From: Candidatus Saccharibacteria bacterium QS_5_54_17
GTDB taxonomy: Bacteria; Patescibacteriota; Saccharimonadia; QS-5-54-17
Length of the DNA: 64,000 nucleotides
Direction: 5' to 3'
Assembly (NCBI GenBank): GCA_003022365.1
Contig: PXOU01000007.1
Coordinates: forward strand, 227 to 64,226
This document shows, piece by piece, positions 3,412 to 59,873 of this stretch. Under the pieces are notes generated by a model, which saw only the letters and a program-made list of their open reading frames with translations, had not been told where the DNA came from and made no database searches. Positions within the stretch are counted from its first letter, which is position 1, and each line of letters begins with the position of its first letter. The translations under genes were made by a program, and so were the position numbers.

Positions 3412-3584
3412 CCTGTGCCCCTTTCGAGTCTTCTTCCAACCTGGCGAAGCGAAGAAAGCCCTTCGCTACTCATATAATCACATGAAATTTGATATTAGTC
3501 AAGGCTGACTGGGGTATTTTTGCACGTAGAACCCGGGATCACTCGGAATCATTACCAAAGCCCTACAATAAAAACCGGGCGAAA

Positions 3585-4140
3585 TATCATTCCTGAATAT
3601 GTCATTCCTGAAACAAGTTCAGGACAGGCTCTGAATTTATTTCAGGATCTGGTTTCCGGGTTGGTTTCAGCATAAAAATGATTCCGGATCGGAGTCCGGA
3701 ATGACAGAGAGGGTGACGAAAAAGCAATGTCATCCTGAATTTAGTTCAGGATCTATTTCAAAGCTGATTCCGAAACAAGTTCGGAATGACAGAGGGGGGG
3801 GCGGAATGAACTACCACGCCCTTACGGACGTGGTTTCACTTTAATTCAAGCTCCGCTTGGCCGCTGTCTTCCCGGCCCTGGTATTCGATGTAGTTCCGTA
3901 TGGTCTCTTCATCCACGCCGACGGTGGAGATAGCGTACAATCATGCCTCCATGCTACCGCATGGAGGCAAAGACAGCGGCGGCGCCTTCATCCACGCCCT
4001 TACGGACGTGGTTTTCTTATGGCGGATAAAGAGGATTCGCATTTTTTTCCTTACTTCCTGTTCCCTGTCTCCAGTCTCCAGTCTACTGTCTACCACTTAC
4101 TGCTTACTTCTTGCTGCTTGCTTCCTGCTTCCTTTTCCTG
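3585..4140. repeat. Composite hairpin-repeat block R1. It contains the modules gtcattcctgaaacaagttcaggacaggctctgaa, atttcaggatctg, ggattccggatcggagtccggaatgaca and two copies of ccacgcccttacggacgtgg, ending in a CT-rich cttacttcttgctgcttgcttcc module.
   Basis: The same modules recur at 11 or more other intergenic loci in this window. ORFs 3857-4141 and 3900-4154 lie inside the repeat and are probably spurious. Confidence 0.8.
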
Positions 4141-4197
4141 ACCGGCCATTATGACATGAGCTTTATACCCCGCATCTGATCCGCTATACTGGCGGGC

Positions 4198-8356: not shown

Positions 8357-8725
8357 TCAGCAGACAGTAGACGGTAGACGGCAGACAGGGAGTGAGAAGC
8401 AACAGGCTCTGAAGATGTCATTCCTGAAACAGGTTCAGGACAGGCTCCGAACTTGTTTCAGGATCTATTGCAGAATCTGTTTCAGGATCATGTCTGGTTA
8501 AAGGATTTCGGCTCGGGGGCCGGAATGACAAATAGGTTTTGCATTCTCCCCTTACTTCTTGCTTCTTGCTGCTTGCTTCTTCTTCCCTGTTCCCTGTCTA
8601 CTTCTGTTTTTTGCTTACTTCTTACTTCCTGCTGCTTACTCTCCGTTCCCTGTATGCTGTCTGCTGTCTACCGCCTACTGTTACCTGCTTGCTTCCTATT
8701 CCCGCTGCCGGGAGACTGTTGTGAG
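8357..8725. repeat. Composite repeat block R2 with a MITE-like layout. The left arm is cagcagacagtagacggtagacggcagacagggagtgagaagcaacagg. Internal hairpin modules follow. The right arm is a long CT-rich microsatellite-like module (cttgcttcttgctgcttgcttc...ctgtctgctgtctaccgcctactg) that is roughly the inverted complement of the left arm.
   Basis: Direct reading of the sequence. ORFs 8453-8755 and 8539-8724 inside it are low-complexity and probably spurious. Confidence 0.8.
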
Positions 8726-8815
8726 TGTATAGGCCGCCCTTTCGTGATATGCTAGGGTAAAGGTAAGGATAACAGGTATGATCCCCCCGTCCTGGATGTG
8801 GCAGGAGTATATAAG

Positions 8816-10960: not shown

Positions 10961-11578
10961 ATGATGCGATCCAAAAAACTACTCATCATCGCCGCTGTTA
11001 TCATCTTTCTACTGGCTGCCGTCGCGGCGGTGTATTGGCTGGAATTCCGGAACCAGGAATTCCAGCTGGAGGATACTTCCCCCGGCCAGCAAGTCCGGAT
11101 AGACCGGCTGACTCCCACCATTTCTTTTGACTATAATCAACCCCTCTTTATCCCCGAGGATTTCCGGGTGGTGAGCGATCCGCTCATGGACGCGGAAATA
11201 TACACCCGCGGCGACACGCTGTATCTGGTACCCAACCACGCGCTCCTCCAGCGAGCGGAATACACCCTGACCATACCCCGGATCGAAAGCCAATCCGGCC
11301 AAAGCATAGGTGAACACACCCTTACCTTCCGCACGGACCGGCGACAGTCGTCCCGGCTTGGGTTTATCCGTGACCTGCCGGTGCATAATCCCGGCTACAG
11401 CATCACCTATCTGGAAGATCAGGATGCGTTCGTGGTCCGCATTACCCAAGTGCCGGTAGAAGAAAAGCGGCTACGGGCGCGTAACTATCTGGAGAAGAAC
11501 GGCATTAAACCCGGGCAAAACGACGTTAAATTCGAAATATTGCGCAGCGTGGAAGGGCGGGGCGCTTCAGCGGGATAA
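10961..11578 (+). CDS. Bitopic membrane protein (205 aa) with VirB8-like topology: short cytoplasmic N-terminus, one TM helix, about 170-aa periplasmic domain.
   Basis: Topology only. It is translationally coupled (ATG 2 nt after the upstream stop). There is no sequence-level family match I can assert. Confidence 0.4.
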   Translation: MMRSKKLLIIAAVIIFLLAAVAAVYWLEFRNQEFQLEDTSPGQQVRIDRLTPTISFDYNQPLFIPEDFRVVSDPLMDAEIYTRGDTLYLVPNHALLQRAEYTLTIPRIESQSGQSIGEHTLTFRTDRRQSSRLGFIRDLPVHNPGYSITYLEDQDAFVVRITQVPVEEKRLRARNYLEKNGIKPGQNDVKFEILRSVEGRGASAG

Positions 11579-11584
11579 TCGGCC

Positions 11585-11845
11585 GATGGGGGCAGTTGAC
11601 AGGAAGCAAGGAGCAAGTGGCAAGTGGAAAATGCAAATCCTCTTTGTCATTCCGAACTTGTTTCGGAATCGGCTCTGAAACAGATCCTGAAATAAATTCA
11701 GGATGACAATGGGGGAAGATCCTGAAACAAGCCTGCCTGCCGGCAGGCAGGTTCAGGATGACATTTTCACTACCCCTCTCTGTCATTCCGGCCCCCGAGC
11801 CGGAATCTATTAAACCGAGGTGTTCAATAAGTTCTGTCAAACTAA
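11585..11845. repeat. Composite repeat block R3: purine-rich arm gacaggaagcaaggagcaagtggcaagtgg; hairpin modules including gtcatcctgaacctgcctgccggcaggcaggttcaggatgaca and tgtcattccggcccccgagccggaat; ending with the ggtgttcaataagttctgtca module.
   Basis: Direct sequence comparison with R1, R2, R4-R12. ORF 11526-11840 is probably spurious. Confidence 0.8.
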
Positions 11846-11905
11846 GCCAGTGATTTATAAAAGGCCGTGGTTATTGTATAATCCAGGGGAAATCAAAAGG
11901 CGGGT

Positions 11906-16416: not shown

Positions 16417-17640
16417 ATGCGGATAAGTTTTACACAAATCACCATAATAGTTGTCGGGGCGCTGATAGTCATCGGGGCCATATGGCTGGTGGTTTCCTAC
16501 TTCACCACCGGAGTCCTGCGGGTGGAAACCGGGCAAAACGCCCGGGTTGAACGGTTCGAGATCGCCGAAAACAGCCAACAAGCCCGAAAGCTTGGCACGG
16601 GGCCGGTGGTTAGCCAACGATTGGATCCGGGAACCTACACCGTAACGGCCGAAAACGCGGAGGGGGAAACGCGGACCGATACTACGGTGCAAAAACGGCA
16701 GACCACCGAGGTTCAGCTCAAGGTAGAAGAAGCAGGCAAGTTCCAAGAACTCACCCGTGGCAACGCCTATAACATAATCTCCCAGGCCGGCCGCCTGCGT
16801 TTTCTCGACCAAAACTTGAAACGGCTGTATCAGTTGGAAGCAGCCGGGCAGCGGCCCGAAAACGTCTTTCCCGGTTTATCCCCGGTATCGAGTATTACCT
16901 GGGCGGGTTATGACAGCGCGTTTGTCCAGCTGGAGAATAACGCCTATAAAGCGCTGGCCAGTGGCAACGTCAAACCGTTTCGATATCCACCGGATGCCCG
17001 CCCTAGTACCGATAACATCCCCAGCCTCGCCTCCCATGACATCAACGACCGCGGCCAAATGGCGGTTAATATCGAGGGTAGTTTGTATCGGTACCCGTCA
17101 GTGGATGCTGAGCCTGACAAATTACGCGATTTACCCAGCCAGAGCAGCCAAATCGCCCTCTCGGACACCGGAAGCATTTTTATATTCCACCCACCGGTAA
17201 CGGGCGAAAACAGTCAGTCCCAGCCCAGCAACCTGATTGTGGGAAGCCAAGCGTCTATGCCGGATGCGATGAAAAATACACACGTGTTGAATGCCGAGTG
17301 GAGTCCATCCGGTAACAAGTTACTCCTGGCCAAGAAAAACGGGCTCCACGTCTACGACAAAGCCGAGCAACAATTAAGCCGGGTTATGCAGTTTCTCCCC
17401 GATAATGCGGACAGTCTCCTGTGGCGGGATGAAAACCGGTTGCTTATGGTCGACGACGGTGCCGTCTGGCAGCTGCACATAGGTGAGCAGAAATGGCGGA
17501 AAATGGCGGACACGCCGGACCCGGTCCGGCACAACAACCCGCTCACCCTTGGCCAGGATGGACGGACCTTATATATGGGTACCACTTCGCAGGGACTGGA
17601 AAATGCCGGGTCTTTGTACCAACTTCGCCTGCCGCAATAG
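16417..17640 (+). CDS. TM-anchored extracytoplasmic protein with a PEGA/CarboxypepD_reg-like beta-sandwich followed by a probable beta-propeller (TolB-like) region.
   Basis: N-terminal TM helix. PGTYTVTAENAEGETRTDTTV is a typical PEGA-like strand pattern, and WSPSGNKLLLAKKNGLHVYD is a propeller-blade-like segment. 57735-59414 looks like a paralogue. Confidence 0.5.
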   Translation: MRISFTQITIIVVGALIVIGAIWLVVSYFTTGVLRVETGQNARVERFEIAENSQQARKLGTGPVVSQRLDPGTYTVTAENAEGETRTDTTVQKRQTTEVQLKVEEAGKFQELTRGNAYNIISQAGRLRFLDQNLKRLYQLEAAGQRPENVFPGLSPVSSITWAGYDSAFVQLENNAYKALASGNVKPFRYPPDARPSTDNIPSLASHDINDRGQMAVNIEGSLYRYPSVDAEPDKLRDLPSQSSQIALSDTGSIFIFHPPVTGENSQSQPSNLIVGSQASMPDAMKNTHVLNAEWSPSGNKLLLAKKNGLHVYDKAEQQLSRVMQFLPDNADSLLWRDENRLLMVDDGAVWQLHIGEQKWRKMADTPDPVRHNNPLTLGQDGRTLYMGTTSQGLENAGSLYQLRLPQ

Positions 17641-17644
17641 CGGC

Positions 17645-18075
17645 CGTATAGTCTCCCGGCAACGGGAATAAGGGAAGTAGATGGTAGACAGCAGACAGAA
17701 AACAGAGAGTGAGAAGCAACAGGCTCTGAACCTGTCATCCTGAACTTGTTTCAGGATCTATTTCAAAACCATCTCGGTTTAATGGATTCCGGATCGGAGT
17801 CCGGAATGACAAAGCGGGTAGCCTGGTAATAACGAATCTTCTATTGTCATCCTGAATTTATTTCAGGATCTGTTTCAGGCTTAGTTTCATAATCATATCG
17901 ACTTAATGGATTCCGACTCGGGGGCCGGAATGACACAGAGGTTTTGCATTTTTTCACTTGCTTCTTGCTTCTTACTGCTTGCTTCTTGTTCCCCTCATCC
18001 GCCTCGTCTCCCGGCTTATTGAACACCCTCACAGTAAACAGCAAGGAGGTGTTCAATAAGTTTCTGTCACATTAA
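17645..18075. repeat. Composite repeat block R4, the clearest MITE-like copy. The left arm is purine-rich (gggaagtagatggtagacagcagacagaaaacagagagtgagaagcaacagg). Two tandem sets of hairpin modules follow. The right arm is a pyrimidine-rich module (cacttgcttcttgcttcttactgcttgcttcttgttcc). It ends with the hairpin cttattgaacacc-N20-ggtgttcaataag.
   Basis: Direct reading of the sequence. The internal modules are duplicated within the element (17705-17815 versus 17840-17945). Confidence 0.8.
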
Positions 18076-18085
18076 GTGGCGGATG

Positions 18086-18343
18086 TCAGCCGATCGATAT
18101 CTTGATGTCGACAACCTCCATGTCACTGAACTTATCCAGAAGTTCTTCCCGGCGTAAGCGGAGATCGTTGGCCACGGCCGAGCTGGGCGTTTCTACGGTC
18201 AGCACCTGGCGCTGGAGCCGCCGGGCGCGGACTTTCCCTGGGTAGAGATTGCTCAACAACTCCTGGATGTTGGCCAGCTGCTCCTCACGAGCCATATCAA
18301 GTGAGTCGACCCGGTCCCGCATAATGTCATCAATTGAGCGCAT
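18086..18343 (-). CDS. DUF721-family small protein (DciA-like / RNA-binding), the conserved neighbour of recF.
   Basis: It is positioned immediately downstream of recF in the canonical dnaA-dnaN-recF-DUF721 arrangement. QVLTVETPSSAVANDLRLRREELLDKF is a DUF721-like segment. Confidence 0.55.
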   Translation of the reverse strand: MRSIDDIMRDRVDSLDMAREEQLANIQELLSNLYPGKVRARRLQRQVLTVETPSSAVANDLRLRREELLDKFSDMEVVDIKISIG

Positions 18344-19390: not shown

Positions 19391-19589
19391 ACGGTTAACG
19401 GGGAGTAGTTTTGCTTATTTTGTTGTGTAATCTGTTAGGTAATATCTCGATCAATAAAAGCGTCATTTTTATCATGGGTAGCATCATTCAGCAGCCTACA
19501 GGACTCCTTTATGTGTCGTATATGTGGATATATCCGGGCTGGCAGTATTTTCGCCCGGCCTAAAACCCTTCAATCGCGCGAAAAAACGG

Positions 19590-20675: not shown

Positions 20676-21017
20676 AATTCATAATCCTTTTATTTACATG
20701 GTTATTATTGCGGTCGTGGAATCTGTGGATAATCGTAATATATTCCTTTTCCAAGCAAAAACAGAACTATTTTCGAAGTGGAGAAATAGCGGAAAAACTT
20801 TGGATAGAGGTGGCGTGTGTTTGCCACAACAGCGACACGACTACCGGAGTTATAAGCGGTGAAATACATCCACCACCTATACACAACCGTTCCCGCCTTT
20901 TCCACATTATTTCCATACCTTTTCCCGAAGGTTTTTAATGTTTGAGGAGCCATAAAACCGGTGTCTCCCGTCACCTGAACACTACCATGAAACAGTTTTG
21001 GGAAAATGAGCCGAGTT
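20676..21017. promoter_or_regulatory. dnaA-dnaN intergenic region with a perfect DnaA box (TGTGGATAA at 20724-20732), weaker box-like sites and AT-rich stretches. It is a probable second origin module or DUE.
   Basis: The consensus TTATCCACA occurs on the complementary strand. The region is AT-rich between the two replication genes. Confidence 0.5.
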
Positions 21018-22391: not shown

Positions 22392-22731
22392 TGGTAACCT
22401 CCCTCACGCGCTTTGCTTAACTCTCTTTTTAGGCGTGTACCTATAAACTATATTAACCCAGGCGCTTGCATTTCCACAAATCCCGCGCATAAATCACCCC
22501 AAAACGGCTCAAGTTTTCCACAAGCAGCATTTAACACCGGCAAGCTTGTGGATAAATGCTTGTTAGATGTGTATAAAAACGATATTATGCAACTAGAAAG
22601 CAGCCTATATATACCCTGTTTGAGCACCGGTAATCCGTGTCAAGTTTGCCGGGAAGAATTAGGCAAGCGGCTAGAGCGGGTGTGTTACGATGCACGGGTA
22701 GCCAAAACAGGTTAGCATAAGGAGTTCCAGC
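22392..22731. promoter_or_regulatory. oriC-type region with DnaA boxes (TTTCCACAA at 22471-22479, TTTTCCACA at 22514-22522, and a perfect TGTGGATAA at 22547-22555) plus the rpmH and dnaA promoters.
   Basis: DnaA-box consensus matches on both strands in the divergent rpmH/dnaA intergenic region. Confidence 0.6.
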
Positions 22732-22869
22732 TATGTCCAAACGGACCTATCAACCCAAGAAACGGCAACGGGCGCGGGAGCATGGGTTCTTCAAGCGCAT
22801 GAGCAGCCAAGCGGGGCGGAATGTCCTCAAACGCCGCCGGCAAAAGGGACGGAAGCGCCTCAGCCATTA
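22732..22869 (+). CDS. rpmH: 50S ribosomal protein L34.
   Basis: Translates to [45 protein letters not shown]. It is below the 60-aa ORF-track cutoff. An AGGAG SD precedes it. Confidence 0.9.
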
Positions 22870-22903
22870 AGGCTTTCATGAGGTGATCCCTTAGGCTTTT
22901 TAT

Positions 22904-24685: not shown

Positions 24686-25060
24686 TATTCCTGAAACCGA
24701 TTCTGAAACTAATCCTGAAACTAATCCTGAAACTGATCCTGAAATAAATTCAGGATGACGTCTTCAGGATGACAGGAACAAGAGCAGGAAGTAAGAAGCA
24801 AGAAGCAAGCGGGGGTCAGTAGACAGGAGACGGTAGACAGGGAACAAAAAACAAAAAGCAGGAAGTAAAGAGGAAGGAGTAAGTTTCGAAATCGGCTCTG
24901 AAATAGATCCTGAAATAAATTCAGGATGACAGTTCTTTTTCGTCACCCTCTCTGTCATTCCGGCCCCTGAGCCGGAATTCAGGCAGCTTTTTATAGATTA
25001 CCTACTGAGGCTTATTACAAAAACTGACGATCGTCAGTAAATGTGATAGCTACGTAAGGA
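24686..25060. repeat. Composite repeat block R5. It has about five tandem ~11-bp units (t)tcctgaaacta, then hairpin modules, a purine-rich arm (ggaagtaagaagcaagaagcaagcgggggtcagtagacaggagacggtagacagg) and tgtcattccggcccctgagccggaat. It ends with the cttattacaaaaactgacgatcgtcagtaaatgtgatagctac module (palindrome at 25024-25037).
   Basis: Direct reading of the sequence. ORF 24764-24958 is probably spurious. Confidence 0.8.
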
Positions 25061-25190
25061 AGTGCCCGGGAAGCAGGATGTAGCAGGCAGGACGAAGGAA
25101 CCGGGGTGGAGGAAGAGGGATAATCTCCTGGGTTAGTTAAAGGGAAATTTGGCAACCAGTGTAAACAAAAGTACGCAAAGCCCATATAGT

Positions 25191-31986: not shown

Positions 31987-31989
31987 CCC

Positions 31990-32300
31990 TCGCCCACTTG
32001 CAATGTCATCCCGGACTCCGGTCCGGGATCTGTTTCAGGCTTGGTTTCAGAACCGGATTCCTAACCAAGTTCGCAGTGACAAATAGGGTGACGCAAAAGA
32101 ATTGTCATCCTGAATTTATTTCAGGATCTGTTTCAAAACCGGATTCCGAACTAAATTCGCAGTGACAAAGAGGCTCTGCAATTTTTTACTTGCTTCTTGC
32201 TCCTTACTTCCTGCTTCCTGTTCCTGTCATCCTGAACCTGCCTGCCGGCAGGCAGGCTTGTTTCAGGATCCATCTCAGGATCAGCTTCAGCATCCCTCCT
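31990..32300. repeat. Composite repeat block R6: hairpin modules, the CT-rich module tttacttgcttcttgctccttacttcctgcttcctgttcc, and the palindrome gtcatcctgaacctgcctgccggcaggcaggcttgtttcaggat.
   Basis: Direct sequence comparison with the other blocks. Confidence 0.8.
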
Positions 32301-37553: not shown

Positions 37554-37554
37554 C

Positions 37555-37930
37555 AATAGGGACCGGAAGTAGGAAGCAAGCAGTGAGGAGCAACAGACTC
37601 TGAACCTGTCACTGCTGAAACAAGTTCAGGACAGGCTCTGAATTTATTTCAGAATCTATTGCAGAAACGATTCCGAACTAAATTCGCAGTGACAAATGGA
37701 CTTTGCATTCTTCCACTTGCTTCTTACTGCTTACTTCTTGTTCTTGTCATCCTCTTGTCATCCTGAACTTGTTTCAGGATCTGTTTCAGGATCCTTTAGG
37801 AGAACCTCGGAAAGCTGCTACACGTCGTAACAAAGCAGTCTGACTTATTACAAAAAATGACGATCGTCAGCAAATGTAATAGCTACTGGGGTGCGTGAGG
37901 AGGCGGGACGAGATAAGTGGGAAGTAGTAA
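37555..37930. repeat. Composite repeat block R7: a purine arm, hairpin modules and a CT-rich arm, then the tgacttattacaaaaaatgacgatcgtcagcaaatgtaatagctac module at 37841-37886.
   Basis: Direct sequence comparison. The second module matches 25011-25053. Confidence 0.8.
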
Positions 37931-37955
37931 GTAATAAGTAATAAGTGGGAAGTGG

Positions 37956-47355: not shown

Positions 47356-47394
47356 GACTCTCTTTCTTACATGGTATATAATCTACTTTTCATC

Positions 47395-47545
47395 TTAACA
47401 AATGAAACGGATTCTGAAATAAATTCAGGACAGGCTCTGACCCCGATCCGGGATCAGTTTCGGAATCTAATGCTGCAACAGGGAAATTATCCCGAATCAA
47501 GTCCGGGATGACTATTATTTTCGTCATTCCGGACGACGGTCCGGA
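47395..47545. repeat. Short repeat block R8 (aaataaattcaggacaggctctgacc...tgtcattccggacgacggtccggaat).
   Basis: It shares modules with the other blocks. Confidence 0.7.
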
Positions 47546-47546
47546 A

Positions 47547-49943: not shown

Positions 49944-49974
49944 ACTTTACTCATTATAACGCACATAGGACGGG

Positions 49975-50235
49975 TTATTCCTGCCTACCCTCTTTGTCAT
50001 TCCGAACCCTCTCCGTCACTCCTAACCCCATCCGTCATTCCGAATTTATTTCGGAATCCGGTCCTGAAATAGATCCTGAAATAAATTCAGGATGACAAAG
50101 AGAAAATTCATTATTACGAGGCTACCCTCTCTGTCATTCCGGCCACCGAGCCGGGATCCATTAACCCGATATGATTCTGAAACGGATCCTGAAACAAGTT
50201 CAGGATGACATCCGGAGCCGGGTCCGGGATAACAA
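49975..50235. repeat. Composite repeat block R9.
   Basis: It contains tgtcattccgaa..., cggtcctgaaatagatcctgaaataaattcaggatgaca, tgtcattccggccaccgagccgggat and gatcctgaaacaagttcaggatgaca. Confidence 0.8.
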
Positions 50236-50254
50236 AAACAAGGAAAACGACAAT

Positions 50255-54344: not shown

Positions 54345-54384
54345 ACTTCCTCCATTATACCTTTATACGAAGTGAAGCGCGAAA

Positions 54385-54700
54385 TAACCGATAATTCTGA
54401 ACGGAATCTGATCTGAAAAGATCCTGAAACAAGCCTGCCTGCCGGCAGGCAGGTTCAGGATGACAGGTTCAGGTGCGAAACTCACAAAAACATTATTGCA
54501 AGGACCGTCCTTGCAATACATAAATTGCCGCATAAGCTTTTGTTTAGCCAATCTTGCAAGGACGGTCCTTGCAATTGCGTGTCACGTCTTCCACTTACTT
54601 CTTACTGCTTACTGCTTGCTTCTTGTTCTTTGTTCCCTCTTTGTCATTCCGGCCGCCGAGCCGGAATCCAAGCAATCCAATTGGAATCTAAAAAAGTTTT
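54385..54700. repeat. Composite repeat block R11 plus two inverted copies of the 21-bp palindrome TTGCAAGGACCGTCCTTGCAA (54495-54515 and 54553-54574) upstream of rmlA.
   Basis: Direct reading of the sequence. The CT-rich module runs 54596-54640 and the tgtcattccggccgccgagccggaat hairpin follows. Confidence 0.8.
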
Positions 54701-59414: not shown

Positions 59415-59690
59415 GCCTTCTTTGTCACTGCGAACTTGGTTCGGAATCTCATTCTGCAACAGGGAAACGATCCCGGATCACTTCGACCTTGCTCAGTGCG
59501 GGTGGGGTCCGGGATGACAATTATTTTTCGTCACCCTCTCTGTCATTCCGGCCGCCGAGCCGGGATCCATTAAGCCGATAAGATTCTGAAACTGATTCTG
59601 AAGCTGATGCTAAAACCGATCCTGAAACAAGCCTGCCTGTCGGCAGACAGGTTCAGGATGACACATTCAGGAATGATATTTAGTCCAATT
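59415..59690. repeat. Composite repeat block R12.
   Basis: It contains tgtcactgcgaacttggttcggaatc, tgtcattccggccgccgagccgggat, tandem ~12-bp gattctgaaact units and the gatcctgaaacaagcctgcctgtcggcagacaggttcaggatgaca palindrome. Confidence 0.8.
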
Positions 59691-59873
59691 TTTGTTGCAG
59701 GGTCTTGATAATGATTCCGGGTGATACGCCCGTGAACACCTTACTGTAGGGGAGGTGTTCAATGTGTCGTGTCACTATACGGGCTTAAAATCTTGCGAAA
59801 TTTGCTATAAAACTTGCGTTTTCGGCATTTGTTCGATACTCTAGGGGTAGAGAAATCAAGGAGATGCTACAAG

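Follow-up and report, generated by a model that had tools for sequence, protein, structure and literature searches.

We analyzed a 64,000-nt stretch of the genome of Candidatus Saccharibacteria bacterium QS_5_54_17 (hereafter the window), part of a 69,427-nt contig (ENA ERZ27230158 k119_113951; the 69-kb contig, with 5 kb outside the window), and focused on R4, one of 12 intergenic repeat arrays (R1 to R12). Among the genes of the window are dnaA-dnaN-recF-dciA, a type IV secretion-like cluster, and numerous cell-envelope genes. R4 stands between a 407-aa gene that ends at 17640 and, convergent with it, a DciA-like gene that ends at 18086. The original prediction, made from the letters alone, took R4 for a nonautonomous mobile element with a purine-rich and a pyrimidine-rich arm as its imperfect terminal inverted repeats (TIRs), that is, for a miniature inverted-repeat transposable element (MITE). 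We found that R4 is a polymorphic noncoding repeat locus and not a TIR-bounded MITE.

The R4 insert and its modules

We delimited R4 by alignment with the empty allele of a close relative, L250 (JGI 3300046060), in which the flanking genes stand 9 nt apart; the limits predicted earlier, 17645-18075, were within 5 nt of the boundaries obtained. The empty allele reads CAATAGC-GGC-GGAGGTCAGCC and the window CAATAGC-GGC-CGTATAG...ATTAAGT-GGC-GGATGTCAGCC. GGC stands at each end (17642-17644 and 18078-18080), which leaves two equivalent readings of the boundary, 17645-18080 and 17642-18077. The left insert end begins CCGTATAGTC and the right insert end is TGTCACATTAAGT, with the following modules.

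17642-18080, no strand: whole R4 insert
17645-17671, plus: left terminal module CCGTATAGTCTCCCGGCAACGGGAATA, holding the hairpin TCCCG-gcaa-CGGGA at 17654-17667
17672-17723, plus: purine-rich tract with 7-nt period, heptamers GTAGACR and GAGAAGC (the "left arm")
17719-17732, plus: junction motif ACAGGCTCTGAACC, conserved in R2, R4, R7, and the allele of relative L002
17734-17758, plus: hairpin H1, GTC-ATCCTGAA-cttgt-TTCAGGAT-C
17785-17810, minus: hairpin H2, GTC-ATTCCGGA-ctccga-TCCGGAAT-C on the minus strand; with H1, convergent doublet 1
17846-17870, plus: hairpin H3, GTC-ATCCTGAA-tttat-TTCAGGAT-C
17909-17934, minus: hairpin H4, GTC-ATTCCGGC-ccccga-GTCGGAAT-C, with one mismatch; with H3, convergent doublet 2
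17733-17941, plus: tandem duplication of the doublet unit, period 112-124 nt; single doublet in the L002 allele
17942-17957, plus: junction TTTTGCATTTTTTCAC, joining an ATGACA hairpin end to the pyrimidine tract
17955-17992, plus: pyrimidine-rich heptamer tract (CTTGCTT/CTTACTG)n (the "right arm"), copy number varying by allele
17993-18064, plus: 72-nt module with a perfect 13-bp inverted repeat, CTTATTGAACACC (18015-18027) and GGTGTTCAATAAG (18048-18060)
18065-18077, plus: right terminus TGTCACATTAAGT, conserved in all three filled alleles

The duplicated hairpin modules that had been expected between the arms are a tandem duplication with 91% identity between 17733-17765 and 17845-17877 and 79% between 17747-17817 and 17871-17941. 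The left terminal module CCGTATAGTCTCCCGGCAACGGGAATA has an inverted copy at the right end of R2, and CCGTATAG is found inverted at the right end of R12; junction TTTTGCATTTTTTCAC is conserved in R2, R4, R7, and R10, with a variant in R6 and an inverted copy in R3; and R12 and L256 each have, upstream of the lexA promoter, a related copy of the 72-nt module, which is missing from the L002 and L257 alleles. The inverted repeat TTGAACACC...GGTGTTCAA lies at 18015-18060 of R4 (13-bp arms, 20-nt loop) and again just upstream of the lexA promoter region (window 59727-59763, L256 4-51), with a half-copy in R3 (11819-11828). In the pyrimidine tract, Tandem Repeats Finder called a period of 7 with 4.6 copies at 17957-17988. 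As single-stranded DNA (ssDNA), R4 folds much better than its shuffles (z = -5.7). Scans gave no match in Rfam (the whole window at gathering thresholds and R4 up to E = 1), no tRNA, and no promoter or terminator in R4, including no site with a hairpin followed by a T run.

A purine-rich left tract of about 50 bp and a pyrimidine-rich right tract are thus both present as described, and R2 and R7 share the layout of purine tract, ACAGGCTCTGAA junction, hairpins, TTTGCAT junction, and pyrimidine tract. The right arm of R4 is, however, complementary to the left in composition only: in local alignment of the left arm with the reverse complement of the right, the Smith–Waterman (SW) score of 13 equaled that of composition-preserving shuffles (13.0±2.2, n=300), 159 of the 300 reaching the observed score. 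Nor are the arms termini, as they lie inside the insert with a 27-nt module 5' of the left and 85 nt 3' of the right. The true termini lack an inverted repeat (SW 4 vs. 5.3 for the null), which speaks against a unitary element of 350-450 bp with imperfect TIRs. The left arm of R4 scores 28 against the reverse complement of the R2 right arm and 13 against that of its own partner, which shows that the tracts belong to one common family of heptamer arrays, of the CTTGCTT/CTTACTG and GTAGACR types, that can face either way, with lengths varying from 38 to 170 nt. Tracts of opposite orientation flanking a doublet give the look of purine and pyrimidine arms.

Hairpin arrays and their turnover among relatives

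The core unit of the arrays is an oriented 25-26-nt hairpin, GTC-AT(6-7-nt stem)-loop-(stem)AT-C, found mostly as a convergent pair (GTCAT... ...ATGAC). The pattern GTCATYC-N13-14-GRATC has 22 matches in the window against 0.04 expected, and a structure-based count gave 26 hairpins against 0.8 expected, with the C following in 24 of the 26; with one exception, the hairpins fall within the 12 array spacers. We observed the stems ATCCTGAA, ATTCCGGM, ATTCCGAA, and ATCCCGGA, together with related cores of the form ATTCCGG-N6-8-CCGGAAT, and at least six strict convergent doublets, two in R4 and at least four in other arrays. When partner hairpins outside this genome were picked by their flanks alone, 97.6% of cells paired and six of eight pairs showed compensatory changes, a result matched by none of 500 shuffles; covariation of the stem within the invariant GTC-AT...AT-C indicates that the stem is under selection.

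Some hairpins hold a 20-nt perfect palindrome between the 5' stem arm and the loop. The four window loci with this extra palindrome in or beside the loop (11719-11762, 32226-32270, 54421-54465, and 59619-59663, with CCTGCCTGCCGGCAGGCAGG between stem and loop) show that composite hairpins, too, have been copied to new sites. In the R4 allele of L002 (locus 11489-11540), a GTCATCCCGGA hairpin is nested in a GTCATCCTGAA hairpin. The hairpin tip may be an insertion hot spot. A reading of the repeats as CRISPR was ruled out, as they are heterogeneous, occur in both orientations, and are irregularly spaced.

The mosaic arrays occupy 12 spacers with 4,706 nt, or 7.4% of the window. They are found in all five convergent spacers longer than 40 nt and in seven tandem spacers but in none of the seven divergent ones (P = 0.0023), thus lying downstream of genes and avoiding divergent promoter spacers. 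The arrays besides R4, for which no strand is assigned, are as follows.

3560-4197: R1, same module family
8357-8797: R2
11579-11905: R3
24686-25190: R5
31987-32298: R6
37554-37955: R7
47356-47546: R8
49944-50254: R9, the same two genes standing 5 nt apart in relative L251
53248-53627: R10
54345-54699: R11
59415-59813: R12, upstream of lexA

The family is noncoding and amounts to more than scattered hairpins, as had been proposed. It was also correctly noted that R5 carries only a purine tract and R6, R10, and R11 only a pyrimidine tract, but these are different combinations of small modules and not truncations of a master copy: the 12 arrays and four R4 alleles all differ in their combinations, and homogeneous copies of a defined length were not found.

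Four alleles of the R4 site were found in close assemblies, with recF-dciA nucleotide identities of 92-98% and the recF-dciA tree (window,(L250,(L002,L257))). The site shows the insertion polymorphism expected of a mobile element, the insert being absent from L250 but present in the window, L002, and L257. The window allele is a 436-nt insert; the L002/L003 allele has the same ends, one doublet with the nested hairpin, and about twice as many heptamers, and is without the 72-nt module; the L257 allele has the same right end, a different doublet, and a pyrimidine tract on both sides, its contig stopping inside the array. Within the assembled part, the left-side tract of L257 has the orientation of the R4 right arm. 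The L250 strain is empty at R4 and has arrays at other sites. Since both ends are common to the filled alleles, the simplest history is one gain and then either a precise loss in L250 or recombinational replacement; two independent gains would take an equal number of events. GGC is doubled at the filled junctions and single in the empty allele, a 3-nt pattern that fits a target-site duplication (TSD) and deletion microhomology alike, whereas a 17-nt direct repeat flanking R4 is not a target duplication, since it lies partly in the 72-nt module absent from L002.

Changes of this kind are not confined to R4. R3, R4, R5, R10, and R11 show whole-module differences from relatives whose genes are 90-92% identical, and the R5 arrays of the window and L002 have almost nothing in common. 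The changes seen are duplication, loss, or replacement of modules, changes in heptamer copy number, and gain or loss of whole arrays. Two more distant relatives, L006 (61% RecF identity) and L004 (74%), lack hairpins altogether, with no spacer between the genes at the R4 site. L003 and L257 are independent metagenome contigs that both end within the R4 array; the arrays of this lineage fragment short-read metagenome assemblies and may be mistaken for MITEs. A RecF peptide scan of genome contigs found no relative. A metagenome scan with the junction pattern TTGCATTYTTYCMCTTRCT was rejected as too degenerate: the 120 loci listed were all single matches, none with the lineage's repeat signature, and are thus probably chance matches.

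Several further features were seen in and around the arrays. Neither hairpins nor arrays occur in the three long spacers around dnaN and dnaA, presumably the origin region (19391-19589, 20676-21017, and 22392-22903), in which these spacers differ from nearly all other long ones. A 43-nt module CTTATTACAAAAAMTGACGATCGTCAGYAAATGTRATAGCTAC with the central palindrome TGACGATCGTCA occurs at 25011-25053 and 37844-37886, each copy having an array on one side and a minus-strand gene's 3' end on the other and being followed by a purine-rich tract. A 21-nt palindrome TTGCAAGGACSGTCCTTGCAA occurs twice 58 nt apart (54496-54516 and 54554-54574), forming a module of about 110 nt; this is found inverted in another array (R3) of L002 with a heptamer tract attached and has thus moved between arrays. 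In R1, identical 22-nt direct repeats CACGCCCTTACGGACGTGGTTT (3815-3836 and 3993-4014), each a hairpin (CCACG...CGTGG), bracket a minus-strand remnant of 34 codons, LYAISTVGVDEETIRNYIEYQGREDSGQAELELK*, from the C terminus of an insertion sequence (IS) transposase, IS200/IS605 tnpA. The remnant is 53-62% identical to annotated IS200/IS605 TnpA C termini in 224 plasmid records (tblastn against plasmids) and seems to represent a mini-IS200/IS605 with an internal deletion that lies within the array; its hairpins are unrelated to the GTCAT hairpins and occur only in R1. This remnant aside, we found no gene for a transposase, an integrase, a repetitive extragenic palindrome (REP)-associated tyrosine transposase (RAYT), or a GIY-YIG protein, either in the window or in the 5 kb of the contig beyond it, and the autonomous partner with matching ends that the original prediction looked to is missing from the 69-kb contig.

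Candidate nuclease, proposed mechanism, and alternatives

In relatives, a small gene directly upstream of lexA and overlapping its start (L251 and L253 from JGI, L252 from Logan, and L256 from ENA ERZ27230162) encodes, from the first in-frame ATG, a 98-aa single-domain GIY-YIG protein (PF01541, E = 8e-14). In these strains, the gene is inserted between the promoter region of lexA and the start of lexA. The L256 protein, whose sequence starts MLYVYLLQSKTKTRGYVG, has both motifs intact (LYVY...GYVG).

L251 9657-10004, L253 5-247, L256 188-484: GIY-YIG gene; the empty site is window 59849-59855

Homologues of 96-98 aa with 60-66% identity, named putative endonuclease or GIY-YIG nuclease family protein, are found in Patescibacteria and other phyla. 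One homologue upstream of dnaG (L258, Patescibacteria) shares a conserved 5' leader (TGTAGTGA..CCTTGATAA.ATTATGTTCTA) with the lexA-linked cassette, and the presence of this leader at both the lexA and dnaG sites suggests that the GIY-YIG cassette is itself mobile.

A precedent for such a pair exists in Neisseria, where the dRS3 repeat belongs to an oriented hairpin of 28 nt, the NTS (CGTCATTCCCGCGMAVGCGGGAATCYRG; Chenal et al. 2025, PMC11893778). The 94-aa single-domain GIY-YIG nuclease SsnA binds that hairpin solely in its ssDNA form, cutting a few nucleotides upstream, with cleavage depending most on the three bases 5' of the palindrome and binding on the C just 3' of it; Ssn homologues and related motifs are known in many phyla (PMC11893778).

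We estimate with a probability of roughly 0.65 that R4 is one locus of genome-wide, hypervariable mosaic arrays of hairpin doublets and heptamer tracts, similar to the Neisseria intergenic mosaic elements (NIMEs) and the bacterial interspersed mosaic elements (BIMEs) of E. coli, and that these turn over by the following mechanism. The hairpins would act as ssDNA, extruded during replication, repair, or DNA uptake, and a single-domain Ssn-type GIY-YIG nuclease would bind them and cut a few bases 5' of GTC, its putative substrates being ssDNA with the hairpins GTCATCCTGAActtgtTTCAGGATC and GTCATTCCGGCccccgaGCCGGAATC. Mosaics may then arise from repair, template switching, and recombination among the many copies, and whole arrays could be lost when slippage occurs between the GGC repeats across the folded structure or when an empty allele takes their place by homologous replacement. 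We infer the role of a nuclease in R4 turnover from the findings in Neisseria and from the GIY-YIG gene polymorphism of sibling strains; the case for the 98-aa protein as the partner of the hairpins and a candidate member of the Ssn clade (CDD cd10448) is circumstantial.

Several observations weigh against this reading. The window lacks the GIY-YIG cassette, about 320 nt being precisely absent between CTCTAGGGGT and the lexA ribosome-binding site, and we found no GIY-YIG coding potential in the contig, within or outside the window, or in 21 kb of L002 (regular expression and six-frame phmmer, the latter with an approximate YhbQ query). No GTCAT hairpins flank the relatives' GIY-YIG gene, and none lie within 4 kb of the 60%-identical homologue upstream of dnaG, which therefore gives no support for a link between nuclease and hairpins. 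The published pattern for Ssn-related motifs (SRM), HGTCWYN(0-2)YYVSBRHN(0-5)WNVSBRGN(0-2)RNCYNB has no exact match in the window, and the 16 matches with one mismatch (vs. 8.8±3.6 in shuffles) include only four true hairpins; the dRS3 pattern ATTCCC-N8-GGGAAT has no match with up to one mismatch. Finally, the inverted similarity of the arms is significant in R2 (z = 5.7) and R7 (z = 3.8), and the GGC at the R4 junction could be a 3-bp TSD.

The hairpin is not restricted to this genome. We searched species-representative genomes, 596 Gb in all, for exact GTCATCCTGAA-N5-TTCAGGATC, for which the 20 fixed bases lead one to expect about one match by chance, and found the 25-nt hairpin at 120 or more loci. 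Among the matches listed, it occurs in near-identical form in more than 10 phyla, the hosts including Saccharibacteria, other Patescibacteria, Sphingomonadaceae, Gammaproteobacteria, Bacteroidota, Gastranaerophilales, Treponema, Elusimicrobiota, Rickettsiales, and others. There, too, it is usually one half of a convergent doublet, the second hairpin having a different stem; in other phyla, a convergent partner lies at most 150 nt away for 62 of 140 seed-oriented hairpins. The hairpin is also present, unannotated, on plasmids of Sphingobium, Novosphingobium, Sphingomonas, Treponema, and Sulfurovum, and no nuclease was found near it in the annotated neighborhoods on the Sphingomonad plasmids. 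At L022, L035, L100, and L111, hairpins or doublets seem, judged by eye from the flanks, to lie inside open reading frames (e.g., in ligase-like and nucleotidyltransferase-like sequence), in which they recall Rickettsia palindromic elements.

A wider reading, which we hold to be unlikely, would make the GTCAT-hairpin doublet a pan-bacterial miniature mobile unit tied to a small GIY-YIG ssDNA nuclease. Its core would be near identical across more than 10 phyla because it travels with or depends on the nuclease, whose gene, as part of the lexA operon, would be under SOS control; the hairpins would have expanded into arrays filling most noncoding DNA of the reduced Saccharibacteria genome, and cleavage would fall in the heptamer tracts 5' of the hairpins. 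If true, nuclease and hairpins would control which incoming or replicating ssDNA is cut and recombined in an episymbiont dependent on DNA uptake.

Two transposition-based alternatives to the mosaic-array reading are of low probability. According to the first, which we consider quite improbable, the hairpins are REP-like and the doublets similar to REPINs (REP doublets), spread by a Y1 (HUH) transposase of RAYT or IS200/IS605 type. Convergent doublets are indeed common in the window and among the hairpins of other phyla, the arrays sit at gene 3' ends as REPs and BIMEs do, and R1 holds the tnpA remnant, but neither a RAYT nor an intact tnpA was found in the contig or the relatives' loci, the remnant's hairpins are of another kind, and the invariant flanks GTC...C are as in the NTS and unlike the GTAG carried by REP sequences. 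According to the second, which we think very improbable, R4 is a composite nonautonomous transposon, a MITE moved by a transposase in trans with GGC as its 3-bp TSD, and the other copies are truncated or rearranged. The precisely empty site in a close relative, the GGC at both filled junctions, the module order common to R2, R4, and R7, and the significantly inverted arms of R2 and R7 would suit such an element. On the other side are the termini without an inverted repeat, the lack of significant complementarity between the R4 arms and their nature as tandem heptamers of variable length, the pyrimidine tracts of L257 with the same orientation on both sides of the doublet, the differences in whole internal modules among alleles, and the missing transposase gene in the 69-kb contig; a slippage deletion, moreover, leaves a 3-nt microhomology equally well. 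Least probable of all is that the arrays act mainly as RNA (terminators, 3'-end stabilizers, or small RNAs) and are repeated through selection for that role, since their place after gene 3' ends and outside divergent promoter spacers and their stable hairpins with covarying stems are set against the lack of a terminator-like site in R4 and of Rfam matches even at E = 1, the use of both hairpin orientations and symmetric doublets, the complete turnover of content between strains with 92% identical genes, the dispensability of the whole array in L250, and the failure of Neisseria SsnA to bind the RNA form of this hairpin class (PMC11893778).

Comparison with known systems

The architecture of R4 recalls several classes of bacterial repeats. 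With TIR-type MITEs such as Correia elements, it shares short, noncoding, repeated sequence and polymorphism of presence and absence, and its junction may carry a short direct repeat; it differs in true ends without TIRs, the lack of a uniform copy, and the lack of a matching transposase in the 69-kb contig. BOX elements of Streptococcus pneumoniae have the structure boxA-boxB(n)-boxC and are likewise modular and intergenic, with distinct end modules and variable internal tandem modules, whereas the end modules of R4 type are tandem heptamers of interchangeable orientation; the comparison is one of architecture. Like REPs, BIMEs, and REPINs, the hairpins are extragenic palindromes in inverted pairs, forming mosaic clusters with other motifs at gene 3' ends, but unlike the REP/REPIN-RAYT system they have no GTAG-type 5' tetranucleotide, no RAYT was found in the available sequence, and their flanks match the NTS class.

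Closer parallels are found in Neisseria. NIMEs consist of dRS3 repeats alternating with diverse spacer elements, at syntenic positions and with content that varies by genome (PMC1797815). In the window, too, intergenic arrays hold spacer modules of many families, 20-200 nt long, with short palindromes of ATTCC...GGAAT core between them. Related genomes have these arrays at syntenic positions yet with different repeat numbers and content, and other elements, such as the IS remnant, are embedded in them. The differences lie in the stems (ATCCTGAA, ATTCCGGM, and ATTCCGAA), in the prominence of 7-nt tandem tracts among the spacers, and in the host, a Saccharibacteria metagenome-assembled genome (MAG) and not Neisseria.

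The likeness to the NTS/Ssn system extends to single positions. The window hairpins have 5' (Y)GTCAT and 3' ATC-Y-R flanks, an ATTCC...GGAAT stem base, and strong genome enrichment; the positions that govern binding and cleavage by SsnA are their invariant positions; and sibling strains carry a small gene for a single-domain GIY-YIG protein. In contrast to Neisseria, the nuclease gene is not in the window's contig and, in relatives, is not flanked by hairpins. A literature search on repeats in Saccharibacteria returned nothing relevant, and mosaic hairpin arrays of this kind had been described as a peculiarity of Neisseria, their tie to ssDNA-specific nucleases dating only from 2025. R4-type arrays offer a natural system for following gain, loss, and reshuffling, in which the link to the polymorphic lexA-adjacent GIY-YIG gene can be tested. 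The hairpins of the window are best seen as akin to the NTS class but a distinct variant, in a MAG of the Saccharibacteria, a lineage of the candidate phyla radiation.

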